Positions 1,433 through 34,508 are shown, numbered from the stretch's first letter. The stretch: 64,000 bases of DNA from an uncultured bacterium (GCA_963759805.1 CAVXAT010000002.1:96001-160000); one strand, 5' to 3'. The notes: generated by a model from the sequence alone, not told the origin. Program-made: numbers and translations.

Positions 1433-2596
1433 TTAAAGCAGCCGACCTAGCATTTTCAAATAAAGTCGTGGCATAAAATCCTGTAAAATCTTTGTAACTT
1501 TTTGATAATCTTCCGTACTAATCTCGGCTTTGGTCTCATGAGATGTTCCTGACTTGAGTTTTTGAGTTAAATCACCGTTCTCATCAAGTGAAATGTTTGG
1601 GATTTTCCAGTACCCACCCAAAATCTCAATTTTGGGAACACAATTATCAAAACATAAAATAAAAATCAATCTCATCGTTGGCTCATATAGTTTTTCGCCA
1701 ACCTGAATAATTTTTGAACCTACAAATTCCTGAACAAGACATAAGTCATTTTTATCATCCGCCCAAGATTTAAAGCGAGGATTGATATTTTGGGGTCTCT
1801 TTTTACTGCTATATAATCGTAATGTATATTTCAAAGTTTTTGCCAATTCCTCTTTTGAAACAATAAAAACCCCTTTTCCCATTGTTCCGCAAGCAGGTTT
1901 TATAACATAATAATCGCATTTAAATTCTTCTATAATCTCTTTTGCAGATTTTTGGGCATAACCGGAAACATCACACATATCTAATCGTTTGAGGATTTTA
2001 AATTTCGGACAATATTTACCAAATTCATCGTCATTTAAAATATTTACAGTATTAATCTTACTGTTGACATAAAATGCCGTGGCCAAGTCCCAAATTAAAA
2101 CATTCGGATATTTTTCCCTAAATATTCTAACACTATCATCCATAAAACTTGTACATATAATTGCTTTATAATTTGAAATTTTATAGGGATCTTTAACTGG
2201 TCCATCTTTAACCAGTGCTTTAAATTTACTGCTCTGTTCCAGCTTTTTCAACGACGGTAAAATGGCACCACCACACTTAATTAATGATTCAGTGGCCCTC
2301 ATCTCATCAAATTCGTTTGGTATATAAAAACCACCCACATGCCAAATTGGTAAATTAAATTGCTTTAAATAATTCCAATATTTATCCCAATAAAATCTAT
2401 TCATTCCCTTGAATGCAGAACGGCGACCTTCACCAAATTCACAAATTTTGAAATTTTGTCCATCAAATTTAAAATCAACGATACAAAATGAAATGTCTGC
2501 ACAAATTTGATCACCAAAATACGGAACACGACAGTAAACATTAAAAAAACAGGTAAGTCCCCCTATCAAATTTAATAACAACTTAACGTTTGGCAC
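1433..2596 (-). CDS. ATP-grasp-like ligase (circularly permuted) with signal peptide
   Basis: YVIKPACGTMGKGVFIV, LVQEFV, PTMRL; N-terminal VDFKFDG..KICEFG; paralog of 7667..8914. Confidence 0.65.
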   Translation of the reverse strand: MPNVKLLLNLIGGLTCFFNVYCRVPYFGDQICADISFCIVDFKFDGQNFKICEFGEGRRSAFKGMNRFYWDKYWNYLKQFNLPIWHVGGFYIPNEFDEMRATESLIKCGGAILPSLKKLEQSSKFKALVKDGPVKDPYKISNYKAIICTSFMDDSVRIFREKYPNVLIWDLATAFYVNSKINTVNILNDDEFGKYCPKFKILKRLDMCDVSGYAQKSAKEIIEEFKCDYYVIKPACGTMGKGVFIVSKEELAKTLKYTLRLYSSKKRPQNINPRFKSWADDKNDLCLVQEFVGSKIIQVGEKLYEPTMRLIFILCFDNCVPKIEILGGYWKIPNISLDENGDLTQKLKSGTSHETKAEISTEDYQKVTKILQDFMPRLYLKMLGRLL

Positions 2597-2610
2597 GACC
2601 TACACCCCTT

Positions 2611-3576
2611 TTATTTTTTTGATTTCAACAACGGATTTCCTTTTAACGGTTGATACTTTTTCATGGAACAAACAACCCGCAATATCTTTTTTTGAAGCTC
2701 TGTATCTACCTTAAAATCGTTCAATCCTGTCGCCCTATCAGCAACATATAAAATATCCGAAATAAACATATGCCTAAACCCGGACATTTCGAGCATTGGA
2801 TACACCATTGCATAATCACTACCCGTTTCAACAAAATCACCCTTATACATCAAATCTTCGCGCTTAATTTTTTTAAATAACCAGGCATAGTAGGATCTAA
2901 GCCCGGATGAATTCCAACCAAATTCTCTAAACTGATTTCTCTTAATAACATCATCAGGATATGCCTTTTGTGGTCGAATCATATTCTGTGGCCAGCTCAG
3001 CAAACTACCATATGTCATCCAAATATTTGGGTCCTGATAAATTTTGTTTAACAATGCCAAAACGTGATCATTCGCCCAGTAATCATCACCGTCGCAGGAT
3101 GCAATTATATCAAAATCATCACACATATAAACTGCATTGTATATATTGGCCATGGCTTTACGTCGCTCTGTATTCTTTATCAATATTACACGATGCTCTT
3201 GGTTTTTCTCTTTGATATATTTTTCGACCAAATCTCCGGTTCCATCAGGCGATGCATCATCAATATAAATTACATTATAGTTATCATATTTCTGCATAAA
3301 AATTGAATCGAGATTTCTTTTATAACGTGTACTGTTATTGTATGATGGAATAATAACAACAAAATGCTTTTCTTCGCTTGTTTTGAGCTCTTTTAACTTA
3401 TCCCAAAGGACATTATACACAGAAAGATCTACAACCCCATTTTTCATCGGCGCAGGAATGTATCTCTTTGAAGAACTAGTTTTTTTACATGTAACACGAT
3501 GTCCGGTATCATACGCAAAAGCTTCAAAACCAATAAATATTAAACATATAAGTAAAATAATCGATTTTTTTTTCAT
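2611..3576 (-). CDS. GT2 family glycosyltransferase with signal peptide
   Basis: IIPSYN, IDDASPDGT, CDGDDY; start MKKKSIILLICLIFIGFEAFA after AGGAG. Confidence 0.85.
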   Translation of the reverse strand: MKKKSIILLICLIFIGFEAFAYDTGHRVTCKKTSSSKRYIPAPMKNGVVDLSVYNVLWDKLKELKTSEEKHFVVIIPSYNNSTRYKRNLDSIFMQKYDNYNVIYIDDASPDGTGDLVEKYIKEKNQEHRVILIKNTERRKAMANIYNAVYMCDDFDIIASCDGDDYWANDHVLALLNKIYQDPNIWMTYGSLLSWPQNMIRPQKAYPDDVIKRNQFREFGWNSSGLRSYYAWLFKKIKREDLMYKGDFVETGSDYAMVYPMLEMSGFRHMFISDILYVADRATGLNDFKVDTELQKKILRVVCSMKKYQPLKGNPLLKSKK

Positions 3577-3697
3577 AGCAACAACACTCCTTTTTTTACT
3601 ATTGAAAAACATATATTAATAACTTATCATAAACTTATTCAAAGGGAAGATTTTTTAGGAAGAAATGCTTACTCGCAAAATCTTAAAGGAGAATATA

Positions 3698-4966
3698 ATG
3701 TTTAAGTACATGGCACTGTTTGTTTTTTCGGTGCTTTGCTTACCATATCCTCATTGTATATCTAAAAGTATATCAAAAACACATGAATCGTTTAAATACT
3801 TTGATTTTGGATATGATAGGGAAATAGATAAACAAAGTAATATTAATATTTTGTTAGCTCGATTTCGTAAAGCTGATTGCGGAGTTCAGCATCATATTTT
3901 TGCCTTGTATAAGCTACTGCTTGATGAAGGAATAAAAGTAAATATCGTAGTCATACAAAATACATCCCTGCAAAAAAGATTATACAACGCAAGACTTCCA
4001 CATTTTGCAATCAGTGAAAACCCCAAGGATGAATTTAATCATTTTTATTCTGCAACTAGCAAAATTTGTAAGCAAACAAAGGCAAATATTATTCATATTA
4101 ATGGTGCTAATTTAGAATATAGAGTTGCTCAAGCAGTTGCAAAAGATTTAAATCTAGCAATAATTCAACAACATCATGACTACAAAGAACCAAATTTAAA
4201 TATATGTAAAAATATTGATGCACTAATATTGGTTAGCCCAGAATTGACAATTCGTTTACCCCAAAAAGATATCTATAAAAATATCAATGTTAAATTTATA
4301 GTTTTTTTCCCACCATTATGCAATGAAGAAAAATTTTTGAATTTCAAACCAATGTACTCCAAAAAAGATTTTTTTAAAGAAAAATTTGGAATTGATATCA
4401 AAAAATCACCAATTTTATGCACCGTCGCAAATTTTTATTATTGTAAAAATCATGAAACCCTTTTCAAGGCCATTCATAATTTAATTTTTAAATATAAAAA
4501 TGAAGTACAACTTGTCCTTGCCGGAACGGGAACAAGTAAAAGAATCACACAACTAAAGAAACTTTGTATCGATCTGAAAATAGATTCCAATGTTTATTTT
4601 CTTAATTTTGTTGAAGATATTCCAGAACTTTTATATCACAGTGACATAAAAATTTTGCCTAGCATTGGAGAAGCATTTTCAATTGCAATAATAGAAGCAT
4701 CTTTGATGAAAAAACCAATAATTCTTTCAAAAACGGCAGGATCGGCTAACCTATTAATCAAAGACATGGAAACAGGCCTTTTATGCGATCCATATGATGC
4801 TGAAGATATAGCAGCACAAATTAATAAAATTTTGAACAATAAAGATTTGGCATTGAAACTTTCAGAAAATGTTTATAGCTTTGTCGTTAAAAATTTTTCA
4901 AGAAAAAACATAGGTCAAATCTATATTAATTTGTATGAAAAAGTTCTTAACAATTCCCGCAAATAA
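3698..4966 (+). CDS. GT4 family glycosyltransferase with signal peptide
   Basis: LPSIGEAFSIAIIEA (EX7E), ETGLL; start MFKYMALFVFSVLCL after AAGGAG. Confidence 0.85.
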   Translation: MFKYMALFVFSVLCLPYPHCISKSISKTHESFKYFDFGYDREIDKQSNINILLARFRKADCGVQHHIFALYKLLLDEGIKVNIVVIQNTSLQKRLYNARLPHFAISENPKDEFNHFYSATSKICKQTKANIIHINGANLEYRVAQAVAKDLNLAIIQQHHDYKEPNLNICKNIDALILVSPELTIRLPQKDIYKNINVKFIVFFPPLCNEEKFLNFKPMYSKKDFFKEKFGIDIKKSPILCTVANFYYCKNHETLFKAIHNLIFKYKNEVQLVLAGTGTSKRITQLKKLCIDLKIDSNVYFLNFVEDIPELLYHSDIKILPSIGEAFSIAIIEASLMKKPIILSKTAGSANLLIKDMETGLLCDPYDAEDIAAQINKILNNKDLALKLSENVYSFVVKNFSRKNIGQIYINLYEKVLNNSRK

Positions 4967-4985
4967 TTTTACTCAAAAAGCTTAT

Positions 4986-5840
4986 TTATTCCAAATCACT
5001 TTTCAATAAAGGCTTATATTGCGGTAGTTTTTTAATTTTTGAAGAAACATTCTTTGCTGTGTTAATAGATGCCTTATTATTTCTAAGCTTACGCCAATAA
5101 CTATTTGAGTTATCGGTATTGTAAACATACAGTATTTTGTTTATAAATTTTGAATGGAAACCGGACATTTCAAGCATAGGAAACATAATTGCCACATCAC
5201 CACAAACTCGAACAAATTTACCATCAAAGATCAAGTCCTCTATCTTAATTCTTTTATATAACCATGCATAAAAAGTACGCAAATGTGAGGTAACCCATTT
5301 ATATGATCTAATTTTATTTTTACTTATGATATCTTTTGGAAGGAATTCACTATTACCGGACTTTCCGCCCGGGTAGGTCATAAATCGCCCGTAAGTTATC
5401 CAAACACTCGAATCCAAATAAACTTTATTTAAATATTCAAGAACATCATCTCCCGCAAGCCAATCATCACCATCAACAATCAAGACTATCTCATCATCAT
5501 CAAGTGAATGAACGGCCCTATAAATATTCTCATGCGCACCAACATTAATTTTATTCTTAACAAGCCTAAATTTAGATTTTAATTCAGAATTGTTTTCTAG
5601 ATACGCTTGGATATAATCAGACATCCCATCATCTGAACAATCATCATAGTAAACTACTCTAAAATTTTTATAGGTCTGGCAGGCAATTGAATCTAAATAC
5701 TTTTGAACATATTTAACATTATTAAAGGAAGCAGTCACAACCGCAAATCGTTTTCCTACAAACTGTTTTGATAGATCTGGTTTTGAAAAACAGTTATTAA
5801 AACTCACAAACAACAAACTCAGTACTAAAACTTTCATCAT
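4986..5840 (-). CDS. GT2 family glycosyltransferase with signal peptide
   Basis: TASFN, YDDCSDD, VDGDDW, SHLRTF; hydrophobic N-terminus. Confidence 0.85.
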   Translation of the reverse strand: MMKVLVLSLLFVSFNNCFSKPDLSKQFVGKRFAVVTASFNNVKYVQKYLDSIACQTYKNFRVVYYDDCSDDGMSDYIQAYLENNSELKSKFRLVKNKINVGAHENIYRAVHSLDDDEIVLIVDGDDWLAGDDVLEYLNKVYLDSSVWITYGRFMTYPGGKSGNSEFLPKDIISKNKIRSYKWVTSHLRTFYAWLYKRIKIEDLIFDGKFVRVCGDVAIMFPMLEMSGFHSKFINKILYVYNTDNSNSYWRKLRNNKASINTAKNVSSKIKKLPQYKPLLKSDLE

Positions 5841-5848
5841 AATTTCTC

Positions 5849-7180
5849 CTAACTTCTTTTATATTCAGATTTTTCAATAATGCTACCGTTTTTTTTAGAC
5901 TCAATAGGCCTAGCCGCAATAACATTTTTATGCTCAATTACTTGCTTGTATAAATCCAAATAATGGCTTGATACTTTTTCAATAGACAAGTTATTCAAAA
6001 CAAATTCATAAGCATTTTCTCCAAGACTCTTTGCAAATCTAGGATCATTAATAAGCCTTTTTATCTGTAATGCGATGTCCTTGAATTTTTGGGGATCACA
6101 CAAAAGTCCCGATTTCTCGTGCTCTATAATCAATCCAGCCGTACCAGCAGTTCGAGAAAGAACTATTGGTTTTTTCATCAATGCAGCTTCAACAATAGCA
6201 ATGGAAAAAGATTCGCCCCAACTAGGCAAAACTTTTATATCAGAATGGAATAATAGCTCCGGGATATCACCAACATATCCAACAAAATAAACATTTTCTG
6301 CTATTTTCAATTTTTTACACAGTGCCTTATATTTTTCAACGCTTCTAGCTGGACCGGACCCAGCCAATACAACCTGAACAGGCATTTTTTCAACATAAAT
6401 TAACTCGTGAATAGCTTCAAGAAAAGTTTGATGATTCTTACAATAATAAAAATTAGCTATCATGCATATTACAGGACAATTTTTAATTTTGATTTTAAGT
6501 TTTTGCTCAAAAAACTCAGACCTTGAATATTTAGGACAAAATTTCAAAAACTTTTCATTGTCACAAATTGGCGGAATAAACTTTATGATACCTGGATTAA
6601 TAGCCCCATTTTCCTTTTTATTTTGCAAATCAGCAGTTAAGGCAGGACTCGATAAAATCAATGCATCAATATTGCTACATAAATTAAAATCAAAAACTTT
6701 GTAAGAATGATATTGTTGAACAATCATTAAATTAAATTTTTTTGCGAGAGCCTGCGCAATTTTTAGTTCAAAATCAAATCCATTAACATGAATTATTTTT
6801 ATGCCGAAGTTATCGCAAATTTTTGCTACACTGCTTGTATAAAATTTTAACTCTTTACTTGAAGTCCCTCCTGAAATAGCAAAGTGTGGAAGCTTGGCAT
6901 CAAGCAAGCGTTTTTGCAATTTTGTCCCCTTTGCAACAACAATATGAACATCTATTCCCATTTCATATAATTTTTTATAAAGAGTAAAAACATGATGCTG
7001 GACCCCGGTTTCAATTTTATGAAATCTAACTAAAAGAATTGGCACAATTTTTTTATTCACAGTTCGAATAACTCGCTTAGAACCAAAAGAAAAATACTCA
7101 AACCTACCGCTCTTTTCTTGCGCCAAACAGTTTTGAAAATAAAATAAAGAGAACATTAAAACAAAAGCCTGTATATTCAT
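5849..7180 (-). CDS. GT4 family glycosyltransferase with signal peptide
   Basis: LPSWGESFSIAIVEA; start MNIQAFVLMFSLFYFQNCLA; paralog of 3698 and 19542 genes. Confidence 0.85.
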   Translation of the reverse strand: MNIQAFVLMFSLFYFQNCLAQEKSGRFEYFSFGSKRVIRTVNKKIVPILLVRFHKIETGVQHHVFTLYKKLYEMGIDVHIVVAKGTKLQKRLLDAKLPHFAISGGTSSKELKFYTSSVAKICDNFGIKIIHVNGFDFELKIAQALAKKFNLMIVQQYHSYKVFDFNLCSNIDALILSSPALTADLQNKKENGAINPGIIKFIPPICDNEKFLKFCPKYSRSEFFEQKLKIKIKNCPVICMIANFYYCKNHQTFLEAIHELIYVEKMPVQVVLAGSGPARSVEKYKALCKKLKIAENVYFVGYVGDIPELLFHSDIKVLPSWGESFSIAIVEAALMKKPIVLSRTAGTAGLIIEHEKSGLLCDPQKFKDIALQIKRLINDPRFAKSLGENAYEFVLNNLSIEKVSSHYLDLYKQVIEHKNVIAARPIESKKNGSIIEKSEYKRS

Positions 7181-7666: not shown

Positions 7667-8914
7667 ATGAAGTATTTTTTTATCTTTGCCATGACCTCAT
7701 GCTTCGCCTTAAATGCTACCACCATTCCACAAAGGTTTGACGACATATCAAATCTATCCAACAAACTGTTTTTATCCGTTCTTGATCAAACAATTACAAT
7801 TAAGTCCAATTCGTATGCCAACCTACCTCCAAGTCTCTCGTTCTTTTCTGCTGATGCTAAATTTGATGGAGAACGCCTTAAATTTTGCGAACTGGGAAAT
7901 GGGCTGTACGGGGTGATTTACCCCGTCTATGGGCTTCTAGATGAAGAAAAAGCCATTCTATACCCACCATACTGGGAGTTTTTATGGCTTTATACATCCC
8001 AATTTAATATCCCAGTTTGGTGTATAACTTGCTACAAAACAAATATGGCATACAAAACTCTGCAACGACTTGATGGAAAAATATTTAACAACATCGAGTC
8101 CTTCGAAAAATATTTAGAAACAAATTACCCTAAAGAAAAATTAATAACAGAAAAACCTAAGTCCATCGAATCGCATTTAGGAATTCTTGCTTATAACGGA
8201 CCCAGAATTGAGAATAGTAAATTAGAAGAGTTTAAAGCAAGACACCCTGGAATACTTTTCATAAACGATTCTCCGGCACTCTACCAACGCCGTAAAGATC
8301 AAATTCACAAAATTTTTGATGATGAATTTTTGAGCCAATTCAGGCCTCGCTGGGGAGTTTACCCTGCAAAATACAGCACAAAACTTGTCGCGCAAATCAA
8401 ACATGAAATTAAAAGCAAATTCTATATCATCAAGCCACTAGTAGGACGACAGTCACGAGGAATTACACTTGTTGATGAAAAGGATTTGGATTCAACACTA
8501 AAAACTATATTGAAAAAACCAATCAAGAATTACAGAAACAACAAGAAAAAGGGCTCCTCTTTCGATTGGAAAGACTACGAATATGACAAATTCATTGTTG
8601 AGGAATTCGTTGAATCAAAACATATGTTAAAAAATGGGCAACCCCATGATCCAACCCTGCGACTTGGTTTTATAATCAGCCAAAATAATGGGGAAATAAG
8701 CGTTAATGTAATTAATGCCTTCTGGAAATTTCCACTCAAATCCTTAACTGACAATTGTGAGCTAACTGAAAAACATGTAACCAGATCCTTAATTGGCATA
8801 AAAGAACCGGCATTAAATACAGATGCGAAAGATCTGAAAAAAATACGAGAAATTTTAAACACTATGCTACCAAAATTGTATGAAAAATATTTAATCTCAG
8901 GCGAAGGGAGATAA
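7667..8914 (+). CDS. ATP-grasp-like ligase (circularly permuted) with signal peptide
   Basis: YIIKPLVGRQSRGITLV, IVEEFV, DPTLRL; N-terminal ADAKFDG..KFCELGN; MKYFFIFAMTSCFALNA. Confidence 0.65.
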   Translation: MKYFFIFAMTSCFALNATTIPQRFDDISNLSNKLFLSVLDQTITIKSNSYANLPPSLSFFSADAKFDGERLKFCELGNGLYGVIYPVYGLLDEEKAILYPPYWEFLWLYTSQFNIPVWCITCYKTNMAYKTLQRLDGKIFNNIESFEKYLETNYPKEKLITEKPKSIESHLGILAYNGPRIENSKLEEFKARHPGILFINDSPALYQRRKDQIHKIFDDEFLSQFRPRWGVYPAKYSTKLVAQIKHEIKSKFYIIKPLVGRQSRGITLVDEKDLDSTLKTILKKPIKNYRNNKKKGSSFDWKDYEYDKFIVEEFVESKHMLKNGQPHDPTLRLGFIISQNNGEISVNVINAFWKFPLKSLTDNCELTEKHVTRSLIGIKEPALNTDAKDLKKIREILNTMLPKLYEKYLISGEGR

Positions 8915-8916: not shown

Positions 8917-10340
8917 ATGGCTAAAAAAACATTAAACATCATTTTTTTGTTCTGTGGGCATCAGTAAGTTTTTGCAATACTTTGTTACATCCGGCTGATA
9001 ATATCTCTTTAAATAAAATAGCTGTTATTGGCGCCGGATACGTAGGGTTAGTAACCGGAGCATGTCTGGCAGAAAAGGGTTTTCCCGTCATTATAGTTGA
9101 AAACAATCTTGCAAAAATTGAAGCTTTATTGAACGGAAAAGTTCCATTTTACGAACCAAAACTAGATAAACTCGTTAAAGACAATATCGATAATAAAAGA
9201 ATTAGCTTTGTAAACAGTATAAAAGAGGCATTTGAACTAAAGCCAAATGTTATTTTTTCATGTGTTGGCACACCTCCCAATGAGAATGGCTCCGCCGATC
9301 TTTCTTATGTTTTCCAAGTCGCTACAGATATAGGAAACAATATGTCTGAGTACTGCTTAATTATAAATAAATCAACAGTTCCGGTTGGAACCTGCGAGAA
9401 AGTTAAAAATATTATTAATACACAACTCAAAAATCGCAGGGGTCTCGATTGATTTTGATGTCGCATCCAATCCAGAATTTTTAAAACAAGGCGATGCCGT
9501 TAGCGACTTCTTTTTTCCGGATAGAATTGTAATTGGTGTTGAAAATAAAAGAGCCGAAGAAATTTTACGTCAAATTTACTCGCCATTTATAATAAATTCC
9601 AACCAATTATTGGTAATGGACATCCCATCTGCCGAACTTACCAAATATGCATCGAATGCTATGCTTGCTACAAGAATAAGTTTTATGAACGAACTTGCAC
9701 TGCTTGCAGACAAAGTTGGTGCAGATATTAATCAGGTCAAACTTGGAATGTCAAAAGATAAAAGAATTGGATCTTATTTCCTCAATGCTGGCATTGGATA
9801 TGGCGGAAGTTGTTTTCCAAAAGATGTTAAAGCTTTGGTGGCAACAGGACTTGAATATGGCCAACCAATGACAATAATCCAAGCAGTAGAAGATGTAAAC
9901 AATAATCAGAGATTAATCTTTGCTCAAGAAATATTAGATTTTTATGGAACAGAAATATCAAATAAAAACATTGGAATTTGGGGGCTTTCATTCAAGCCGG
10001 AAACAGATGATTTACGCTGTGCTCCATCAATCGATATTGTTAGTTTATTACTTGAGCATGGATGCCAAAATCACAGCTTACGACCCGGCTGCACAAAATA
10101 ATTTCAAAGCTCTTTTTGGTAATAAAATAAATTATGCACAAACTTCACAGGAAATTCTTGAACAATGCGACTGCTTGGTTATTTTAACTGAATGGAAAGA
10201 GTTTCTTAAAATATAAGCCATCTGACTTTAATTTATTAAAAGAAAAAGTCGTTTTTGATGGTCGCAACTGCTTTGATCCGGCAGAAATGTTGGATGCTGG
10301 GATCAAATATTTTTGTATAGGCAGAAATTTAAGTTGTTAA
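8917..10340 (+). pseudogene. ugd: UDP-glucose/GDP-mannose 6-dehydrogenase, four frameshifts (possibly sequence errors)
   Basis: IAVIGAGYVG, KSTVP, SNPEFL, GYGGSCFPKD, FKPETDD, DGRN spread over successive frames; shifts near 8945, 9440, 10060, 10210. Confidence 0.85.
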
Positions 10341-25492: not shown

Positions 25493-26386
25493 TTATCCAA
25501 GATATGAATGACAAGATACATAATGATACCCTTTATTCTTAAACAATTCCAAATTTTGCAACTTAGTATTAATCCATTTTAGTTTTCTGATTTCACATTG
25601 ATTTGTTCTTAGGAGCGTAAAATTGAAATAAAGTTCATACTCTGAAGCACATGCCCCTTCAACATCGTTTAAATCAATACAATTGCAAAAGGCTTCCCAA
25701 AAACTTATTTTAAATTTTTTTTCTACTATTAAAAACATATCCTCCAAAATACAACGCTGCACAAGCATATGATGTGAAATTCCAGAGTATTCTGAGAATA
25801 CTCTTTTAAATCCGGGTATTAATTTTTGCCCATGATTAAAATATGGAGGATGAAACTCTTTTCCGGGATTGAAAAAACCTGCCCCTGTATTCTTATCACA
25901 AAACATTACAGGATTTAAAAAAATAGTATCTGCATCAAGAAGAAGAATATTTGAAGAGATATTTGGAATAACAAAAGGGGAATAGAGTTTTAATAGTTGC
26001 TGATAAATCCATCCAATTCGATCTAATTTGTAATTTTCGTCTTTAAAAAGTTGCCTAAGTAGATCCTTTTTAGAAAATGGAAATTTTGCCTCATCAAACC
26101 ATTCAGCCTTGGCGGTTAATTTTTCCGGTGAAATAACAATAACACGTCTGATATTTGAAGCGTTTTTCTTGATGCCTTCTATGCACATATCCAGTGTTCT
26201 AGCATCCTTGACTATGCATACAATTACGACGTCAATGGGGTCTTTATTAAATTTGTAAGCAACTTTTTGTATTGGTAAATAAGGGGGATTTTGTGTAAGA
26301 GCTTGAGTTTTATTTTTCGCAAAGCTACTAGCAAAACTAAACAACAAAAACCATATGTATGCAAAAAAAACAGTGTTTTTTTTCAT
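25493..26386 (-). CDS. GT-A-like nucleotide-sugar transferase (DUF6492-like) with signal peptide
   Basis: GWIYQQLLKL, LDADT, SEYELY; start MKKNTVFFAYIWFLLFSFASSFA. Confidence 0.65.
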   Translation of the reverse strand: MKKNTVFFAYIWFLLFSFASSFAKNKTQALTQNPPYLPIQKVAYKFNKDPIDVVIVCIVKDARTLDMCIEGIKKNASNIRRVIVISPEKLTAKAEWFDEAKFPFSKKDLLRQLFKDENYKLDRIGWIYQQLLKLYSPFVIPNISSNILLLDADTIFLNPVMFCDKNTGAGFFNPGKEFHPPYFNHGQKLIPGFKRVFSEYSGISHHMLVQRCILEDMFLIVEKKFKISFWEAFCNCIDLNDVEGACASEYELYFNFTLLRTNQCEIRKLKWINTKLQNLELFKNKGYHYVSCHSYLG

Positions 26387-27184
26387 CACTCTATCCTTAT
26401 CGAAAAAGACCCCGTCCAAAAAACAATTTATCAATGCCAAAATATTAAGTAAACAAAAATTATAAAATATAACCAAGCAAAAAACATAAAAATCAATATA
26501 TAAATTCTCTTGACTTTTATATTTAAAATCATAAATAATTATCCTATTGATCAAAGAAATTAGAGAAAAGGATATGAGTGAGAAACAAATACTTCCTTAA
26601 ACAATTTGCTATATTTTTTTTAATTCCATTAGCAACACAGTCAATGACAGCAACAAATACAAATAATATGGTAATAAATACCAAATTAATTCAATTTAAT
26701 GAATCAATAGACAATGCATATAATGCATCCATAATTGAGTATGGCAGTGGGTACCTTTTAATTTTTCGACATGACACTGAAAATAAATTATGTGCATGTG
26801 GGTACAAACAACCACAAATTAAAATGGTGTGCCTAAATAAAAATTTCGAACAAGTAACTCCTATTAAAAATGTTGAAATTAAAAAAGCAACCTCAAAAAC
26901 AAATTTGACAGAGAAGCTTATTCCATTTACACCAGAAGATGCACGAATACACTCTTGTCGTAGACAGTTGTTTTTAACTTATAATAGCGATGTTGATGTA
27001 CATCAACATACTACGAAGAGTAAAACTCCATGGAGAAGACAGATGTTTAAAGGGAAATTCGACCCCAAAAAAGCTTACCTTTCAGATATTGAACAAATTC
27101 CATCAAATAATATTCCATTAACACTTGTTGAAAAAAATTGGACCCCATTTGAATATCCTGAAGGATCCGGGGGGCTTTATTATA

Positions 27185-28186
27185 ACGCCAGTTCGATAAT
27201 TAGTTAAGGCTTGGAATTTCAGCAAAAAACCCCACACCTATCGCAGGTTTGTGTTGATGAAAAGAATAGGCTGAAATTGCAGCAAAAACATTCGTGAAAA
27301 AATTTTTAACACATCTATGTCTAGTATGTTCGATTTTAAAGGTATTTTTCAGGATATTGTTAACAGATTCAATGATGTTTCGTTTTTTTAGAAAAAGTTT
27401 TTCAAAAAAGATCATGAGCTTGTTTTTCATACCCTTTTTAAGCTTTGTTATAAGCTTGAGACCACGCCTAAAAAGTTTTTCAAAAAGAGGTTGTGATATA
27501 TAACCACGATCGCCAAAAAGCCAACCCCAAAGATTTTTTGTAACTTTAGAAATAACTGATTCGTTACGGTCATCAGTATTTCCTGGGGTAATCCAAAATG
27601 ACAAAATTTCACCGAAATGATTAATCACAAGATGGAGTTTGAACCCATAAAACCAGCCCATTGATGATTTTCCGCGCTGAGCAATACCCTTAAAAACTTT
27701 GTGTGAGTAAATTCGAAGATTGTGGCACACAACCAATTTTGTGGAATCAATAAAGGCAATACCGCGCATATTTTTACTGTTGCGACTTGCAGCAAATAAT
27801 GCCAATGGCTCTGCAGCCTCATGCATTAACTCAGTAAAGCGAGTGTAGCTAACCAAAGCCCCAAAGGCTGTTTTCAATTCTTTGCAAACATGGTCTTTGT
27901 AATATCTTTTGAATGTGTGATATCCAGAATAATGAAAATATACGCAAATCGTAAGAATATCGCTTAGAGTCATGCCTCGTGGGCGTCCTGCAGCATTTAA
28001 CGTGTTATTCTTTACTCTCTTTTCTTTAACATATTTTTCATATTGCTTGCAAAAATCATCAATTTCGCAAAAAATAGTTGTTAAGAACATGTTTAGCCTT
28101 TCTCTTTTTTTTTGAGGGTTTCATTTTTCTCAATTTAAACGAGAAAGGCTTTTTTTAAAGAACTTTTTTAATTATCGAACTGGCGT
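27185..28186 (-). mobile_element. IS982-family insertion sequence (1002 bp)
   Basis: Perfect 18-bp terminal inverted repeats acgccagttcgataatta; 7-bp direct repeat TATTATA at 27178-27184 and 28187-28193. Confidence 0.95.
27200..28090 (-). CDS. IS982-family DDE transposase
   Basis: IFCEIDDF, FIDST, GWFYGFKLH, GDRGY, RNIIES, IEHTRHR. Confidence 0.95.
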   Translation of the reverse strand: MFLTTIFCEIDDFCKQYEKYVKEKRVKNNTLNAAGRPRGMTLSDILTICVYFHYSGYHTFKRYYKDHVCKELKTAFGALVSYTRFTELMHEAAEPLALFAASRNSKNMRGIAFIDSTKLVVCHNLRIYSHKVFKGIAQRGKSSMGWFYGFKLHLVINHFGEILSFWITPGNTDDRNESVISKVTKNLWGWLFGDRGYISQPLFEKLFRRGLKLITKLKKGMKNKLMIFFEKLFLKKRNIIESVNNILKNTFKIEHTRHRCVKNFFTNVFAAISAYSFHQHKPAIGVGFFAEIPSLN

Positions 28187-28688
28187 TATTATATATACAT
28201 GACATGCCCTCATATAATTATAGATCTATCTAAATCATGTAAAATAATAAAAAATGAATTAAATTTAAAAACTTTATGGGACAGTGAAATATTTGGAAAC
28301 ATTAGAGGTGGAACACCAGCTCGGTTGGTTGATGGAGTTTATCTCACATTTTTTCATTCATGGAAATTTCATACAAAAACAAAAGAATATCGATACTTCA
28401 TGGGAGCATATATTTTTGAAGCAGCCCCACCATTCAAAATTCTCGCTATTACGCCAGAACCAATTAAAAATGACGAATTATGTACAGCCAAACACAGAGT
28501 TAAAAATTTACATGTTATATTTCCTGGTGGATTTGTTGTAGAAAAGAAAGATAGGCAAACTTTATTGCATGTTGCTTGTGGAGAAAATGATTCATCAATT
28601 CGCATCATTTCAATAGATAAAGATAAATTGTGGGAAAATATGAAAAAATGTTTTTCATAAAAGTATATTATTTAAAAAAAGGGTAAAA

Positions 28689-29600
28689 ATGACAATAAAA
28701 AATTGTTTCCTTGCACCTATTCTCTTGCAAACGTTGGTTTCAATTCAAATAAATGCTAGCTCAAAAAAAATTGTACCTCCAAAAGCAGTAGAAGCCAAAC
28801 AAGAAGCCAAAAAACCTGATACAAGCAACATTTTTGACCTTAAAAATTTTGAACGCCTAGCAAACATAACGATATCTTCTGATATAAAAAAATATTATTC
28901 AGATATAGATAAAGTTGATGGATGGTTTGATAAAAGACATATTATAATACTCCTCTTAATAAATTTATTTCAAACAAAAAATAGCATTAATGGAAATTTG
29001 GGTGAAATTGGTGTTTGGCAAGGCAAATCTTTTATTCCATTAATGCTACTTGCTAAAAACAATGAATATGCTGCTGCTATAGACTGCTTTGAATCATACG
29101 AATTCAATCGCGACAATTCCGGAGGAGGTTCTTGTAGCTTCGAAATTTTTAATAAAAATGTAGAAAAGTATTGTTCAAAACATAGTAATCTTAGAGTTAT
29201 AAAAGGTGATTCCTCTAGCTTTTCAGCAAAAGATTATCTCAGTGTAATGGAAAATGGGAAAGGCTTTAGAATATTTAGCATTGATGGTTGCCATGAAGCT
29301 CCCTCTACCATTAAAGACATGGAAAATGCATTTAACTGCCTGGCTGATGGAGGCGTTATAATCATTGATGACTATTTTCACACTTGTTGGCCAGGAGTTT
29401 CTGAAGGCCTTAATTTTTTTATGAATAAAAATGTTAATTGTTTGAAACCATTTTTAATTGCATGGAACAAAATATTTTTTGCACAACCAGCCTTTGCAAA
29501 AAAATATTTTGACTTGATTAAAGAATTTTTGATTCCCAATGATGTAAGAATAAAAAAATTCTTTGGCGTAGACACGTTAATATATGATAAGCAAGGATAA
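28689..29600 (+). CDS. Class I SAM-dependent methyltransferase (Methyltransf_24-like) with signal peptide
   Basis: GEIGVWQGKS, SIDGCH, GGVIIIDDY, WPGV. Confidence 0.8.
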   Translation: MTIKNCFLAPILLQTLVSIQINASSKKIVPPKAVEAKQEAKKPDTSNIFDLKNFERLANITISSDIKKYYSDIDKVDGWFDKRHIIILLLINLFQTKNSINGNLGEIGVWQGKSFIPLMLLAKNNEYAAAIDCFESYEFNRDNSGGGSCSFEIFNKNVEKYCSKHSNLRVIKGDSSSFSAKDYLSVMENGKGFRIFSIDGCHEAPSTIKDMENAFNCLADGGVIIIDDYFHTCWPGVSEGLNFFMNKNVNCLKPFLIAWNKIFFAQPAFAKKYFDLIKEFLIPNDVRIKKFFGVDTLIYDKQG

Positions 29601-29605: not shown

Positions 29606-30532
29606 ATGAATTATAAAATACTTTTTTTATTTTTTTCACTAAGCATTAATCCCATATCAGCTAACGTTGAAACCCATCTAAAAAAAATAGTCGGAAAATC
29701 TGGAAATCACAAAATAAAAAATATAGATTTTATCTACATGATAAATTTGGATAAACGACCAGAAAAATTTGCCCGTTGCAAAGAACAACTATCTAAGTAC
29801 AATATTGAGCCATTTAGATTTTCTGCAGTTAATGGATGGGAATTACCAATGGAAACCATTAACGATGTTGGCGTAAAATACGAAACATGGATGGCGAAAG
29901 ATCTATGGGGAACTTATTATTCACCAGATAAAGGAGAGTTTCAGCATGAAATTATGAACGTCAAAGGAAGAACTTATTTCTGTCATTGTACGGTTCGCGG
30001 GCCAATTGGAATAAACCTAAGTCATCTTTCGATTCTTAAAGATGCATTGGATTCAAAATATAATACGATATGGGTAATGGAAGATGATATTCAGATTATT
30101 AAGGATCCACATAAAATTTCATCTTTAATTGATAAATTAGATAATCTTGTAGGTAAAAAAGGATGGGATATACTGTTTACAGACAAGGATGCAAAGGATC
30201 GAAATGGAAACTATGTTGTATGTTTAAGTTATGCCAAAAGACCAAACTTTTCCCCTTTGCATCCTGAACGATTTGCGGTAAGAAAACAAATTGATTCTGA
30301 TTTTATAAAAATTGGAGCACGTTATGGAGCACATTCAATGATAATTAGGAAGTCTGGAATACAAAAGCTTTTAAAATTTTTTTGTAAGTATTCCCTATTT
30401 CTTCCATATGATATGGATTTTACTATGCCTGACGACATACACTTGTATACCGTTACAGATGATATTGTATCAAACCAGCCTGGAGCACTTTCAGACAACG
30501 GATCTCCAGGATATTTGAAAAAAGAAAAATAA
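29606..30532 (+). CDS. GT25 family glycosyltransferase with signal peptide
   Basis: INLDKRPEK, RFSAVNG, LSH, VMEDD. Confidence 0.8.
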   Translation: MNYKILFLFFSLSINPISANVETHLKKIVGKSGNHKIKNIDFIYMINLDKRPEKFARCKEQLSKYNIEPFRFSAVNGWELPMETINDVGVKYETWMAKDLWGTYYSPDKGEFQHEIMNVKGRTYFCHCTVRGPIGINLSHLSILKDALDSKYNTIWVMEDDIQIIKDPHKISSLIDKLDNLVGKKGWDILFTDKDAKDRNGNYVVCLSYAKRPNFSPLHPERFAVRKQIDSDFIKIGARYGAHSMIIRKSGIQKLLKFFCKYSLFLPYDMDFTMPDDIHLYTVTDDIVSNQPGALSDNGSPGYLKKEK

Positions 30533-30577
30533 TTACTAAATAATTCTGGTATTTTTATCAAAAAAAAAGCGTTAGTT

Positions 30578-31627
30578 ATGCATATAAAAATATTTTTTAT
30601 ATGTGGCTTGTTATTCTACGTAAATTTGTCAGCCACTACCAAAAAAATAATTTACTTAGTTCCACCTTATTCTTCAGGAAAAGAGAATCTACTTTTTAAT
30701 CCAAATGAAAGGGATGACTGCAATAAGCCATTTATCGAATTAAGAAATGCAGCAGAAAAACTTGGTCATTCTTTAAAAGTAACAAAAGACATTACAAACT
30801 CAACCAATGTAGCCGCCATTGTCGTTATTACAACAAAACATTTAAATCCTGAATTTTTCAGGCAACTAGAAAAATACCCTTTAGAAAAACGTATTCTTTT
30901 TTTATACGAATCTCCATTGCTTGAGGGATGGGCGCATATTCCAGATATTACAAAGCATTTTGGAAAAACGTTTACCATGCTTGATAATTTTGTTGATAAC
31001 AAAACTTATTTTAAATTCTACATGCCACAACCATACCTAAGTATGCTTAAAAATATTCCAGATTTTGCTAAAAAGAAATTTTGTACATTAATCGCAGGAA
31101 ACAAAAACTGGAACAACGAGAAAAACCGTAACGAATTGTACTCTGAACGTAAAAAGACAATAAAATTCTTTGAATCTCTTCACCAAAATGAATTTGACTT
31201 ATATGGCATAGGCTGGAATACAAAAGAATACCCATCTTATAAGGGGAATATTACAAATAAAGCACAAATTCTGCAACAATACAAATTTTGCATCTGCTAT
31301 GAAAATATTCAAAACGTTTTTGGATATGTTTCTGAAAAGATTTTCGATTGCATGGCGGCAGGATGTGTTCCTGTTTATTGGGGAGCATCAAACATCCCAG
31401 ATTATGTTCCTGCTAACTGTTTTATTGACCGCCGTAAATTTAAGTCGCATGACGATTTATATCTATTTTTAAAAAGCATGGATAAGAAGACATATAACAA
31501 ATATCTAGAAAACATAAAAAGGTTCTTTAATTCTTCGCAGGCATCAAACTTTTCAATAGATAATTTCATAAAAATATTTTTTGCTGCAATCGATAGCTCC
31601 AAACAACAAGATCCTGGAAATGAATAA
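30578..31627 (+). CDS. GT10 alpha-1,3-fucosyltransferase-like protein with signal peptide
   Basis: YKFCICYEN..GYVSEKIFDC..GCVPVYWGA. Confidence 0.85.
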   Translation: MHIKIFFICGLLFYVNLSATTKKIIYLVPPYSSGKENLLFNPNERDDCNKPFIELRNAAEKLGHSLKVTKDITNSTNVAAIVVITTKHLNPEFFRQLEKYPLEKRILFLYESPLLEGWAHIPDITKHFGKTFTMLDNFVDNKTYFKFYMPQPYLSMLKNIPDFAKKKFCTLIAGNKNWNNEKNRNELYSERKKTIKFFESLHQNEFDLYGIGWNTKEYPSYKGNITNKAQILQQYKFCICYENIQNVFGYVSEKIFDCMAAGCVPVYWGASNIPDYVPANCFIDRRKFKSHDDLYLFLKSMDKKTYNKYLENIKRFFNSSQASNFSIDNFIKIFFAAIDSSKQQDPGNE

Positions 31628-31677
31628 ATAACAGCCCTTAATCCTGCAGCGAGCCCCTTTATCACGAAAAATTTTTA

Positions 31678-32852
31678 GCGGGAATTGCTTTTAATCCTGA
31701 GCATACTCTTTTGATTATTCCAAATATCTGTACATCCAAATTAATTTTCGTATAAGTTGTTATGTAGAGAAAGTGCAATCATTCTTTTATTAAGGGGGGA
31801 ATATGAAGTTAGGATATCTGCTTGTAATTTTATTATTAACTTTTACAACTAAAACATTATATTGTACAAATAATCACTCTCTAAAAACACATCCACAAAT
31901 CTCTCGAAAGTTTAAACTGTTGACAACGCTTTACAATGAAAAAAACGAAAAAAGATTTTTAGAATTCGTAACATGTATTGAAAATAATTTAAAAAATACA
32001 TCAATAGACACTATTCATGTCATTTATGACACCTCTAAAGACGACTCAAAAAATAGCATGCTACTCAACTATCTTAAATCCAAAAAAATAAGACTTTCTT
32101 ATATTTCAGACCGAGCATCATACGGAGATTTTTTCAAAATAGCAAATAAAAAATATCCAAATTGCAGGGTAATCGTAAGTAATGCCGACATATTTTTCAA
32201 CGAAACCTTATCGTTACTCGAAGCATGTGATTTATCTAATAAATTTATAGCATTAACCCGTTGGAATGTACAAGCGGATGGATCGCTCACTGAATGCGCC
32301 CCTAACGGGGGCTCTCAAGATGTGTGGATATTCCAAACCCCGCTACCAAAATTCGAAAATGATACAATTAAAATTGGGCTGTTGGGTTGCGAAAATGTTA
32401 TCGCTTATCAAGCACAAAAAAGCGGACTTACGTTATTTAATCCATCATTCTCTATTCAATGTTGCCATCTTCATTTGTCAAAAATCAGAAATTATCCAGG
32501 CAATCGGCCCTACAAAAACATGAAGAAGATCGGCGTACCCAAATGTACAATATCTAAACTCTTAGCACCCGACATTTTTTAGTCCTCAGTTAAGGCAAAA
32601 ACTTGTTTTTCACTAAGATGCGGGAATTGCTTTTAATCCTGAGCTTACTCTTTTGATTATTACAAATATCTGTACATCCAAATTAATTTTCGTGTAAGTT
32701 GTTATGTAGGGAAAGGGCAATCATTCTTTTATCTTTTATTAAGGGGGGGATATGAAGTTAGGATATCTGCTTGTAATTTTATTATTAACTTTTACAACTA
32801 AAACATTGTATTGTACAAATAATCACTATCTAAAAACACATCCACAAATCTC
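31678..32852 (+). repeat. Direct repeat of about 230 bp (31678-31903 and 32620-32852): upstream region, RBS and first 34 codons
   Basis: Near-identical DNA from gcgggaattgcttttaatcctgagc to acatccacaaatctc in both copies. Confidence 0.9.
31803..32582 (+). CDS. GT-A-like hypothetical protein with signal peptide
   Basis: VSNADIFF, ALTRW, SQDVWIF, GCE, HLH. Confidence 0.6.
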   Translation: MKLGYLLVILLLTFTTKTLYCTNNHSLKTHPQISRKFKLLTTLYNEKNEKRFLEFVTCIENNLKNTSIDTIHVIYDTSKDDSKNSMLLNYLKSKKIRLSYISDRASYGDFFKIANKKYPNCRVIVSNADIFFNETLSLLEACDLSNKFIALTRWNVQADGSLTECAPNGGSQDVWIFQTPLPKFENDTIKIGLLGCENVIAYQAQKSGLTLFNPSFSIQCCHLHLSKIRNYPGNRPYKNMKKIGVPKCTISKLLAPDIF

Positions 32853-33513
32853 ACACATGTTTACGCTTTTAACATTTCTCTACAATGAAAAAAATGTATG
32901 TCGTTGTGCCGAATACATGGCAACTTTAGAAAAAAACCTGCAGCATCATTTGATTAAGAGAATTCATATTTTATATGACGTATCAAATGATGACAAAAAT
33001 CCAGAAAATAATTTTTTGTTTAATTATTTAAAAAAACAACCTATTACAATTACTTTGACCGCTCATCGACCAACGTATGGAGATTTTTTTGCACTTGCAA
33101 ACAAGCAGTATCCGAAAGAACAAATTATCGTGAGCAATGCAGATATATTTTTTAATGAAACGCTAGATTTGCTTAAGTCATACGATTTTACTGGCAAGTT
33201 TATTGCGCTTACTCGATGGAATGTGCAGCGTGACAATCAACTTGTCATGCGCAAGGACCTCATATCTCAAGATACGTGGATATTTGTAACACCGCTGCGA
33301 AAATTTGAAAATGACGACATAATGCTTGGTTTGAATGGCTGCGACCCAGAAATTGTTTACTATGCACAAAAAAGTGGTTTATGCGTAACAAACCCGTGTC
33401 TCAGTATTCAATGTTGTCATCTTCATTCATCAGGGGTAAGAAATTACATATTAAAAGATCGTCCCTATAAAAAGGAGCCACCAGTGCTGATTCCACATAC
33501 CAAATTGTATTGA
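32752..33513 (+). CDS. GT-A-like hypothetical protein with signal peptide (tandem paralog)
   Basis: VSNADIFF, ALTRW, SQDTWIF, GCD, HLH. Confidence 0.6.
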   Translation: MKLGYLLVILLLTFTTKTLYCTNNHYLKTHPQISHMFTLLTFLYNEKNVCRCAEYMATLEKNLQHHLIKRIHILYDVSNDDKNPENNFLFNYLKKQPITITLTAHRPTYGDFFALANKQYPKEQIIVSNADIFFNETLDLLKSYDFTGKFIALTRWNVQRDNQLVMRKDLISQDTWIFVTPLRKFENDDIMLGLNGCDPEIVYYAQKSGLCVTNPCLSIQCCHLHSSGVRNYILKDRPYKKEPPVLIPHTKLY

Positions 33514-33542
33514 TGCGATTTCTAGAAAAGGGGCAGAAAATT

Positions 33543-34508
33543 ATGAAAACAAATCATTCTATACACCTGGTTATATTTTTAGTTTCTAATTTTACAACCA
33601 TGATCTTGTGTAGTGCAACCTTTATACAAGTAAAGTCGATACCATCGTCAAATAAAACACAAAATATTGATTCTGAAAAGTATATCCTCAGGGCTCGTGA
33701 GAACTGTGGATTTTTCTCAGAATTTTTGGGGGCAATTCAAAACATTTCATGGTGCGACCAAGAAGGAAAAAAAGCTGTCATATACTGGGATAATAAGAGT
33801 TTATATTACGAACCCAACGGTTTTAATAACTCACATAATGCTTGGGAATATTACTTTGAACCGATTTCTGATGCCAAATATGAACCGGGCAATAAAATAA
33901 ATCGAGTGTATGAAACACCAAGTGGATTTGGAATCCCTTATAAGGATTACAGCCATATGGAAGAGCTACGATCGAAAATGCATGCGGTTATTAAAAAGCA
34001 TATAAAAATCAAACCCTATGTTTTAGATGTAGTAAACAATTTTTATAATAAAAATATGAAAAATTGCATTGTGATTGGCATCCATTTAAGAGGAACAGAT
34101 AAGAAATTTGAGGCAAAACCAATAAATCCATTGGCTGTTATAAACAAGGCAAAAGAATATGCTCAATCGGCAAAAAAAATAGCTACCCAAAAGCAAATTA
34201 AGTTCCTTGTTGCTTCTGATGAACAACGCCTAATCAATTTTGCCAAAAAGAATTTGAATGGAAATGTGATAGTTTATGCCCAAGCAATGCGAAGCGCTGA
34301 TGGAAAACCTGTTCATTATACCCATGCAAATAATAAAGTAGAAAAGGGATATTTTGCCAATCTGGGACGTGATGTTCTGGTTGAAGCCCTTCTGCTTGCA
34401 CAATGTGATTTTTTTGTTCACACTCGATCAAATGTATCAACGGCTGTAATTTTATTTAATCCAAATTTGATTCATTTTCAATATGACGGATATGCTAATC
34501 TTGATTAA
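33543..34508 (+). CDS. NodZ/GT23-like fucosyltransferase with signal peptide
   Basis: CGFFSEF, NAWEYYFEP, GIHLRGTDK, LVASD, SNVS; paralog of 21132. Confidence 0.75.
   Translation: MKTNHSIHLVIFLVSNFTTMILCSATFIQVKSIPSSNKTQNIDSEKYILRARENCGFFSEFLGAIQNISWCDQEGKKAVIYWDNKSLYYEPNGFNNSHNAWEYYFEPISDAKYEPGNKINRVYETPSGFGIPYKDYSHMEELRSKMHAVIKKHIKIKPYVLDVVNNFYNKNMKNCIVIGIHLRGTDKKFEAKPINPLAVINKAKEYAQSAKKIATQKQIKFLVASDEQRLINFAKKNLNGNVIVYAQAMRSADGKPVHYTHANNKVEKGYFANLGRDVLVEALLLAQCDFFVHTRSNVSTAVILFNPNLIHFQYDGYANLD

Follow-up and report, generated by a model that had tools for sequence, protein, structure and literature searches.

A variable Babeliales locus whose leadered enzymes may build a surface glycan outside the inner membrane

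Gene content of the locus

The DNA considered here is a stretch of 64,000 nucleotides from an uncultured bacterium (GCA_963759805.1, CAVXAT010000002.1:96001-160000), called the window in its full length and corresponding to C2:96001-160000, where C-numbers denote contigs of the study genome and G-numbers the genomes of the order that were compared. The study genome (G000) has 1.50 Mb in 21 contigs, is 88.7% complete and belongs to the Babeliales (Dependentiae), as its homologues with names are Babeliales or Dependentiae, the Gmd and Fcl proteins of the window group in trees with named Dependentiae/TM6 rows, and TLC carriers are encoded. Positions 1433-34508, flanked by NurA (87-1421) and YchF (34505-35623), hold a cluster of 28 genes and one IS982 element, with a GC content of 32.3% against 37.1% in the remaining window. 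An earlier note on this DNA had announced about 28 glycan enzymes at this place; the number has been borne out, whereas a glycan role is presumed for two ATP-grasp proteins, three genes of propeller-like type and four proteins that Pfam does not match with confidence. Twenty-one genes are intact and seven are broken, six of the latter by frameshifts in the assembly that all fall within 8.9-19.6 kb (three visibly in homopolymer runs directly after the leader) and the remaining one by the IS982 element. Open reading frames of at least 250 aa cover 47% of 8.9-19.6 kb versus 84-91% elsewhere in the cluster. The locus may be partly decaying in this genome; its congeners G002 and G003 hold intact leadered copies of genes that are broken here.

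The Pfam content of the cluster amounts to four glycosyltransferases (GT) of family GT2, four of GT4, two pyruvyltransferases, and a GT10, a GT25, a NodZ-like protein, an S-adenosylmethionine (SAM)-dependent methyltransferase, GDP-mannose 4,6-dehydratase (Gmd), GDP-L-fucose synthase (Fcl) and UDP-glucose dehydrogenase. All cluster genes described below, apart from the IS982 element, code for a leader, and signs give the strand. Gmd (23268-24413, +) matches TIGR01472 with 582 bits, over the cut-off of 415, from residue 32 onwards; Fcl (22215-23237, +), which adjoins gmd, has NF047922 as best match (E 2e-129, full length, 431 bits versus a cut-off of 500), the profile beginning at residue 27. 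They are, respectively, 56 and 60% identical to leaderless paralogues at C8:63674 and C8:62358, relative to which both have about 30 extra N-terminal residues. UDP-glucose dehydrogenase (8918-10340, +) is broken by frameshifts, with PF03721/00984/03720 in three pieces and the leader starting in another frame, at an ATG with a Shine-Dalgarno (SD) site at 8918; it is 70% identical to a leaderless paralogue at C5:55844, and leadered copies are intact in G002 and G003. The methyltransferase (28689-29600, +) is Methyltransf_24/TylF-like (PF13578, E 7e-14), and the polysaccharide pyruvyltransferases (PF04230) lie at 12376-13278 (-; E 1e-18) and 13265-14074 (-; E 6e-15), the latter 87% identical to a leadered copy in G003.

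The GT2 proteins (PF00535) are encoded at 2611-3576 (-; E 7e-21), 4986-5840 (-; E 2e-15) and 10337-11275 (-; E 2e-17), and the GT4 proteins (PF00534) at 3698-4966 (+; E 1e-31), 5849-7180 (-; E 3e-29) and 19542-20834 (-; E 7e-31), together with a frameshifted GT4 gene at 14084-15383 (-) that has PF00534 and PF13439 on separate pieces. The fourth GT2 domain (PF00535, E 1e-19) is part of a two-domain glycosyltransferase at 17840-19518 (-) whose other domain is a GT-A of the type encoded at 24499; in this gene a frameshift parts the leader from the body, and the G002 copy is intact and leadered. A GT25 protein (29606-30532, +; PF01755, E 4e-10) precedes a GT10 fucosyltransferase (30578-31627, +; PF00852, E 1e-15), and a NodZ/FUT8-like fucosyltransferase closes the cluster (33543-34508, +; PF05830 E 9e-6 and PF19745 E 3e-4, both under cut-off). 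Its paralogue at 21132-22157 (+) shares 66% DNA identity with it over 832 bases and has no Pfam match of its own. Another gene, in pieces at 15408-16640 (-), is 25% identical (E 2e-18) to an intact leadered paralogue at C4:89559, neither having a Pfam match; it may be fucosyltransferase-like, to judge by a motif alone.

Other families are less familiar. The protein at 24499-25434 (-) has no Pfam match and represents a family without a name, whose AlphaFold2 model (predicted local distance difference test score 93) has a GT-A fold with GnT-I, TarP and SpsA as best Foldseek matches (E about 1e-8); its DD pair is invariant, and of 151 genomes in the order 48 contain the family. The gene at 25493-26386 (-) codes for a DUF6492-like protein, likely a glycosyltransferase (PF20102, E 0.002; 82% identity to a leadered G003 copy). 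Without a Pfam family, the protein at 31803-32582 (+) is a probable glycosyltransferase, with several named Babeliales among its homologues and the ESM Atlas cluster 'glycosyltransferase family protein' as nearest (0.98, a lead only); its paralogue at 32752-33513 (+) has a near-identical leader region, upstream DNA and leader being 90% identical over 275 bases and the body 65%. ESM Atlas places 24499 and 31803 near viral clusters. IMG/VR contains four distant (25-29%) leaderless homologues of 24499, located in glycan gene clusters, a homologue of 31803 was not found there, and PHROGs gave weak matches for 3 of 19 cluster proteins; with viral homologues distant or absent and PHROGs matches weak, there is no case for recent gene transfer from viruses.

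The ATP-grasp protein at 1433-2596 (-), of uncertain glycan role and with a weak leader, matches ATPgrasp_ST at E 0.002, and the best match of its family profile is the tubulin polyglutamylase TTLL7 (E 2e-6 over 69 positions). A second member of the ATP-grasp family (7667-8914, +), 25% identical to the first and without a Pfam match, is 70% identical to leadered congener copies. Three GH130-like genes, predicted propellers, complete the set. The one at 11284-12326 (-) is frameshifted, with a weak PF04041 match (E 0.004) and an E of 5e-6, far under cut-off, against the NCBIfam mannobiose phosphorylase, and its G003 copy is intact, leadered and 80% identical; that at 16642-17771 (-), in pieces, resembles it at E 2e-9; and the third (26578-28660, +) is split by the IS982-type element (27185-28186, -; transposase 27200-28090, PF13612). 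This element, which stands outside the pathway, has terminal inverted repeats and a 7-base target duplication and is 99.8-99.9% identical to two further copies in the genome.

Leaders, start sites and leaderless paralogues

Leaders were recognized by a rule of our own, namely a 10-residue uncharged window with a mean Kyte-Doolittle value of at least 2.0, used with within-genome controls. A basic, hydrophobic and small-residue leader is present on all 21 intact proteins and on the 5' part of the IS-split gene; 20 of these 22 readable proteins pass the rule, and 1433 (score 1.85) and 28689 (1.99) were added by hand. In the other six broken genes leaders were seen by eye, sometimes in a frame other than that of the catalytic part, so that the claim of a leader on every gene of the cluster holds for 28 of 28. 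The background of the rule is 85 of 4297 internal methionines (2%). Across the study genome, 334 of 1037 genes of at least 150 aa are positive (358 with alternative starts), and the cluster is enriched (22 of 23 versus a background of 0.35, p about 1e-9, with genes that are not independent). In Chromulinavorax, 44% of the proteins have signal peptides, according to the accessible text of its description (PMC6561590). Since about one-third of the genes of the study genome bear leaders, the leader per se is unremarkable and the enzyme types bearing it are what matters; the telling carriers are Gmd, Fcl, UDP-glucose dehydrogenase and the pyruvyl-, fucosyl- and methyltransferases.

The earlier note had asked whether the true starts might lie downstream of the hydrophobic segments. 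The start codons precede the hydrophobic stretch, with an SD-like site at 17 of 22, and no SD-backed in-frame ATG or GTG was found at residues 12-45 of the 22 cluster proteins; in the window Gmd there is no ATG or GTG at all within these residues. Elsewhere in the genome, SD sites precede 47 of 65 first methionines and 0 of 65 internal ones. A wrong-start artefact is thus ruled out by the SD sites at the upstream starts and their absence internally.

The anatomy of the leaders, assessed with the same rule and controls, comprises a basic n-region, a short hydrophobic core and small residues at -3/-1. Their best 19-residue hydrophobicity (1.70, n=22) is close to that of the cleavable envelope controls of this genome, which include BamA, DegP, TolC, a porin and a secretin (1.79, n=13), versus 2.64 in its membrane anchors (n=5); a small-X-small site is found in 95% of the cluster leaders, 92% of the envelope controls, 40% of the anchors and 58% of a mature null. 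By sequence, therefore, the leaders look like the cleavable Sec signals of this genome and unlike its membrane anchors. Export by the twin-arginine (Tat) system was rejected, as neither a twin-arginine motif (0 of 22 leaders) nor TatC in the study genome was found. The 19-residue values do not match a long, uncleaved Golgi-like anchor, and the anchored, Golgi-like enzyme array offered earlier as an alternative is a poor, though conceivable, fit to the Babeliales leaders and may suit Chlamydiales homologues. Proteins named Chlamydiales/Parachlamydiales that are homologous to the GT2-GT-A fusion and to the pyruvyltransferase (P0403, P0483, P0489, P0089, P0247) have hydrophobic N-termini, more anchor-like than the Babeliales ones; in the whole set of fusion homologues a hydrophobic N-terminus is present in 114 of 120.

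Where other pipelines called the genes of homologues, the leader is retained in 103 of 120 cases for 24499 and 95 of 120 for 31803; homologues have a charge of +1.9 before the core and -0.4 after it. For the pyruvyltransferase at 12376 the leader becomes rarer among more distant homologues (10 of the nearest 30, 5 of the next 45 and 3 of the last 75). Among the leadered proteins of the study genome, 65 of 313 have alanine, glycine or serine and then methionine directly after the core (null 4.7%), mostly followed by glutamate, glutamine or lysine; no SD site precedes this methionine in the 65 proteins, whose mature forms would begin with methionine like host cytosolic proteins. A methionine at the first mature position is found in 1 of 22 window proteins (p 0.09 against the 65 of 313) and was not used as a marker of the host cytosol.

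As the earlier note had stated, no polytopic membrane protein is found in the cluster, and no further transmembrane segment was seen in its intact proteins (fragment 16994 scores one). Within the cluster there is no priming phosphoglycosyl transferase, no ABC exporter and no Wzy, a protein for which no genome-wide search was made. The claimed lack of such machinery holds for the window but not genome-wide: a PF00953 transferase is encoded at C8:152122, an ABC exporter next to the leaderless gmd and fcl genes (C8:65064), and a pair of PMT_2 membrane transferases outside the window. On the other hand, neither Wzx (PF01943, found in 13 of 14 controls) nor the PF02397 priming transferase was found in the study genome at its 88.7% completeness; five multi-transmembrane proteins outside the cluster have no Pfam match at 1e-5. 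The search for manC and nucleotide-sugar transporters that had been proposed alongside wzx found ManC, in leaderless form, and one EamA-family carrier. Elsewhere in the genome a leaderless set exists of Gmd, Fcl, UDP-glucose dehydrogenase, ManC, GalU-like, GT2, GT4 and GT11 proteins; enolase and the phosphomutases are leaderless as well. Together with the ABC exporter and the PF00953 transferase, this set makes the cluster genes a second, leadered pathway, and by its gene content the study genome retains a conventional cytoplasmic route beside it. Near the conventional gmd/fcl, leaderless genes of pseudaminic/legionaminic type were read by eye at C8:44590-52124 and 61291-62364. LpxC occurs here (C2:26748) and in 29 of 31 family genomes, which makes lipid A synthesis likely in this family. 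The study genome also encodes several TLC nucleotide carriers (12 matches), a GspE/PilB ATPase, a porin-family protein and three secretins.

Leaders across the Babeliales

Comparison with homologues indicates that leaders recur across the order and have been gained repeatedly, while leadered Gmd proteins are few in an all-bacteria scan, where the 5 leadered rows of 75 are two named Dependentiae and three rows inside the same clade. Within the Gmd set, 15 of 107 rows are leadered by rule, and on a quick tree this label needs 4 changes, at least 3 of them forced by well-supported branches; the main leadered clade has 12 rows (Shimodaira-Hasegawa-like approximate likelihood ratio support 88). An approximately unbiased test on 43 of the 107 rows (those of the order minus one long-branch copy, plus 6 outgroups, one borderline leader being counted as present) rejects a single clade of leadered Gmd with p 6e-8, which implies several leader gains or losses. 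In G017, tandem sister copies of gmd, one leadered and one leaderless (support 99), are nested among leaderless copies, which points to at least one recent gain. Another example is Fcl, with 19 of 44 rows leadered and 7 changes in a tree from which 6 duplicate loci and UXS-like rows had been dropped and in which three rows had been relabelled by hand. The leaders of Gmd and Fcl agree in 34 of 37 loci (12 with both, 2 of these by fusion, 22 with neither, 3 with Gmd only and none with Fcl only), in a count made by hand on which kinship inflates any test. A leadered Gmd-Fcl fusion is encoded in G084 (L144).

Donor-making enzymes of other kinds are also concerned. ManC is leadered in four loci (G058, G168, G108 and L065), and in two of these its gene immediately follows leaderless WecB/WecC-like genes. 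Of 81 genomes of the order, 9 yielded a MetK, which by eye is leadered in 8 of them. The sole SAM synthetase found in the study genome (C1:309763-311001, L161) is leadered. In G002 and G003 the same NurA-YchF site holds all-leadered loci of differing content; in the G003 stretch 16 of 17 open reading frames are leadered and the exception is a short piece. Surface-glycan loci also vary in content at a fixed site, and variable content at this one fits a coat. The leadered pattern is widespread in Babeliales and apparently undescribed so far. About 16 contiguous leadered genes, a sulfotransferase gene among them, are found in G008 (L111), and in the study genome leadered glycan-type genes outside the window (C4:89559-93465, C2:178380-180990, C1:170986 and C4:61807) code for GT34-like, DUF6492, GT32-like and GT4 proteins and a third ATP-grasp paralogue.

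Export, destination and comparison with known systems

Bacterial surface glycans based on nucleotide sugars are known to be assembled on the cytoplasmic face before being flipped or exported, and the enzyme families of the cluster need NADP(H), GDP-mannose, UDP-sugars, phosphoenolpyruvate (PEP), SAM and ATP. Export of some kind is nevertheless quite probable for the proteins of the cluster, in view of the leader anatomy, the start sites, the leaderless paralogues, the concordant and repeated gain of leaders and the host-dependent lineage. The fuller reading, to which we give about an even chance from sequence data, is that of a variable Babeliales locus whose Sec-leadered enzymes build a surface glycan outside the inner membrane from host-derived metabolites. 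The export proposed in the earlier note is in this way retained; of the destinations that it named, the cytosol or vacuole of a protist host, the cytosol seems less likely than a separate compartment such as the periplasm, the cell surface or the vacuole lumen. Cultured relatives are described as intracellular parasites of protists in the accessible texts (PMC4378268, PMC6561590), Babela massiliensis growing in one vacuole (PMC4378268) and Chromulinavorax in the host cytoplasm with a mitochondrion wrapped around it (PMC6561590).

From the gene content, leaders, start sites, leaderless paralogues and distribution observed, the following steps may be proposed. Sec would carry the enzymes unfolded across the inner membrane; given that TatC and twin-arginine motifs were not found, Gmd and Fcl would have to bind NADP(H) at their destination. 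GDP-mannose, UDP-sugars, PEP, ATP and NADPH would come from the host through the outer membrane, while Gmd/Fcl, UDP-glucose dehydrogenase and the leadered SAM synthetase would produce those donors that the host does not supply in that space. The transferases would then lengthen an acceptor already outside, possibly lipid A or a lipid-linked or protein-linked primer from the leaderless C8 pathway, so that neither flippase nor polymerase would be needed. The earlier premise that the periplasm generally lacks such metabolites may fail for a parasite that has to feed its inner-membrane nucleotide carriers through the periplasm: these carriers work only if host nucleotides enter it, which would make the periplasm the simplest destination, with no second export step. 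The leaders on MetK and ManC, and those of lipobox type seen in adenylate kinase and in a thioredoxin-reductase-like protein, also suggest a compartment that needs equipment, rather than the host cytosol, which has its own SAM synthetase and ManC-type enzymes. More generally, Babeliales may well have made cytoplasmic enzymes exported time and again, running a glycan factory beyond the inner membrane in a space that the host provisions, a proposal on which the evidence leaves us evenly balanced. The factory's own supply would be GDP-fucose, UDP-glucuronate and SAM, and environmental Chlamydiae may share part of the arrangement.

Several observations weigh against this picture. A basic early mature region disfavors Sec export, and the 18 residues after the core have a net charge of +1.36 in the cluster proteins versus -0.21 for the remaining leadered proteins (n=314, p 2.5e-5) and -1.38 in the envelope controls. 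This objection is softened, and still stands, given that the cluster proteins are basic overall (+2.45 per 100 aa) and that the early mature charge is near neutral in two homologue sets (-0.36 and -0.05). The leader rule is our own, flags one-third of all genes and gave 11 evident false positives among 267 representatives. Six clustered GT4 proteins of Babela massiliensis were called by 2, 1, 0, 1, 1 and 1 of three SignalP models (PMC4378268, supplementary file 9); calls of this kind count somewhat against the leaders, and at the same time, with at least one call in 5 of 6, lend them weak independent support. The strongest caution comes from adenylate kinase, since the only copy found in G000, and likewise in G019, is leadered, so that some leaders may not mean full export. 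ManC, enolase and the phosphomutases of the study genome are leaderless, 7 of 28 cluster genes are broken, and the acceptor, the product and the supply route of metabolites are proposals.

Part of this evidence would suit an arrangement without export, in which the leaders anchor the enzymes on the inner face (N-out, C-in) or an internal start gives a cytoplasmic form, the product leaving via the C8 ABC transporter. The basic residues after the hydrophobic stretch, the leadered sole adenylate kinases together with an internal methionine with an SD site in G057, the methionine just past the leader of Fcl, Gmd or ManC that many relatives keep, and the ready presence of all needed metabolites in the cytoplasm are in its favor. 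We consider it unlikely, because the short cores end in signal-peptidase-type sites, unlike the five anchors, internal starts lack SD sites in the cluster as elsewhere in the genome (in the window Gmd they are missing altogether), the charge of homologues falls from before to after the core, and leaderless paralogues already serve the cytoplasm. More serious, although still rather doubtful, is Sec export with a further type II secretion step that delivers the enzymes to the host cytosol. There they would draw on the host's GDP-mannose, UDP-sugars, PEP and NADPH to modify glycans or proteins of the host or to coat the vacuole, much as chloroviruses glycosylate their capsid. Effectors of host type (ankyrin, cyclin, ubiquitin hydrolase, WD40 and histone deacetylase) bear the same leader type, the secretins and the GspE/PilB ATPase are at hand, the best match of the ATP-grasp pair is a tubulin glutamylase, and the exported route begins at GDP-mannose, as in the chlorovirus PBCV-1 (PMC9614988, accessible text); in Babela massiliensis, type II secretion is the sole secretion system predicted to be used (PMC4378268, accessible text). 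This destination is at odds with the leadered MetK and ManC, which would duplicate host cytosolic enzymes, with the lipobox-type leaders, which suggest membrane-bound use near the bacterium, and with the exchange of genes at a constant site, which resembles coat variation.

A periplasm fed by the bacterium itself, with cytoplasmic ManC, GalU and enolase making donors that an inner-membrane carrier exports as in the Golgi lumen, would account for the leaderless ManC, GalU-like enzyme, enolase and phosphomutases and for the EamA-family carrier. Nevertheless, there would be little point in sending out Gmd, Fcl and MetK if ready-made donors could be exported, a single EamA is an implausible carrier for GDP- and UDP-sugars, PEP, NADPH and ATP, and the lineage takes up nucleotides rather than exporting them, as its TLC carriers and the accessible text of PMC6561590 indicate, so that we regard this as improbable. 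Least probable of all, and very much so, is that leaders were added promiscuously to acquired genes and that the island is largely non-functional. The many rule-positive genes, the broken genes, the low open reading frame coverage between 8.9 and 19.6 kb and the recent copying of a leader region between 31803 and 32752 would agree with it; against it stand the 21 intact genes, the intact leadered copies of broken genes in the congeners, the leaders kept by most 24499 and 31803 homologues despite unrelated sequence, and the concordance between Gmd and Fcl.

Compared with known systems, and by analogy only, the locus works most like the lumenal glycogen enzymes of Chlamydia and the GDP-fucose pathway of chloroviruses, being a member of neither. 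Chlamydia trachomatis is a vacuolar parasite that exports carbohydrate enzymes and uses host UDP-glucose via SLC35D2, although through type III secretion, for one storage polymer and without N-terminal Sec leaders (PMC4829429, accessible text); the cluster has about 28 enzymes of many families, nucleotide-sugar synthesis, pyruvyl and methyl decoration and Sec-like leaders. In PBCV-1, Gmd and Fcl of the parasite convert host GDP-mannose and feed its own glycosyltransferases (PMC9614988, accessible text), but these enzymes are produced inside the host cytoplasm, so that export is unnecessary, whereas the bacterium would export them across its own membrane. O-antigen and capsule loci with gmd-fcl-manC share with the cluster the enzyme families, the clustering, the variability at a fixed site and the lower GC content; their enzymes, however, are leaderless and cytoplasmic and go with a priming transferase, flippase or ABC exporter. 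The cluster, all leadered, has none of these, and lacks the features that define Wzx/Wzy and ABC-dependent loci (Wzx, a priming transferase and an exporter in the locus, leaderless enzymes). Golgi type II transferases also have an N-terminal hydrophobic segment and a lumenal catalytic domain, and GT10 and FUT8-like families are shared with the cluster and GT34/GT32-like ones with other parts of the genome. Unlike them, the cluster leaders are short and cleavable-looking, and Gmd and Fcl, leadered here, are cytosolic in eukaryotes. Finally, the Sec/type II secretome of Dependentiae (Babela, PMC4378268; Chromulinavorax destructans, PMC6561590) has the same leader type and a large share of signal peptides; the accessible main texts discuss ankyrin proteins, proteases and nucleases and not glycosyltransferases or fucose. 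Glycosyltransferases are likewise not discussed in the accessible main texts of PMC11495043, PMC12172432 and PMC12644861, nor are exported glycan enzymes treated in that of PMC3417536, and no description of exported glycan or nucleotide-sugar enzymes in Dependentiae was found in a literature search whose coverage left out most subscription titles.

If the proposal is true, it breaks the rule of cytoplasmic-side assembly, offers a bacterial route of glycan assembly without a dedicated lipid carrier, flippase or polymerase, and makes the periplasm or vacuole a host-stocked metabolic compartment of an intracellular parasite. It would also give a concrete function to part of the very large Dependentiae secretome, and the soluble fucosyl-, pyruvyl- and unnamed GT-A transferases are worth characterizing. 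Other leadered proteins of normally cytosolic types are encoded at C9:52662, C1:136107, C1:101100, C8:115365, C8:153997 and C1:194717, and comprise the thioredoxin-reductase-like protein (with a lipobox), a short-chain dehydrogenase, a HAD hydrolase, a member of the dCMP-deaminase family, a pyridoxal phosphate enzyme and a ribonucleotide-reductase barrel. The adenylate kinase of the study genome (C6:3979-4764, L240) has a lipoprotein-type leader and an internal methionine, and 4 of 22 adenylate kinase copies read in the order are leadered. Within the window, a leadered protein of the peptidase A4 family (fungal-type) adjoins the cluster (35836-36696, +), a tandem array of four leadered WD40-like genes, likely host-directed, lies at 50173-54150 (-), and an anaerobic ribonucleotide reductase with its activase was read by eye at 61088-63438 (-).

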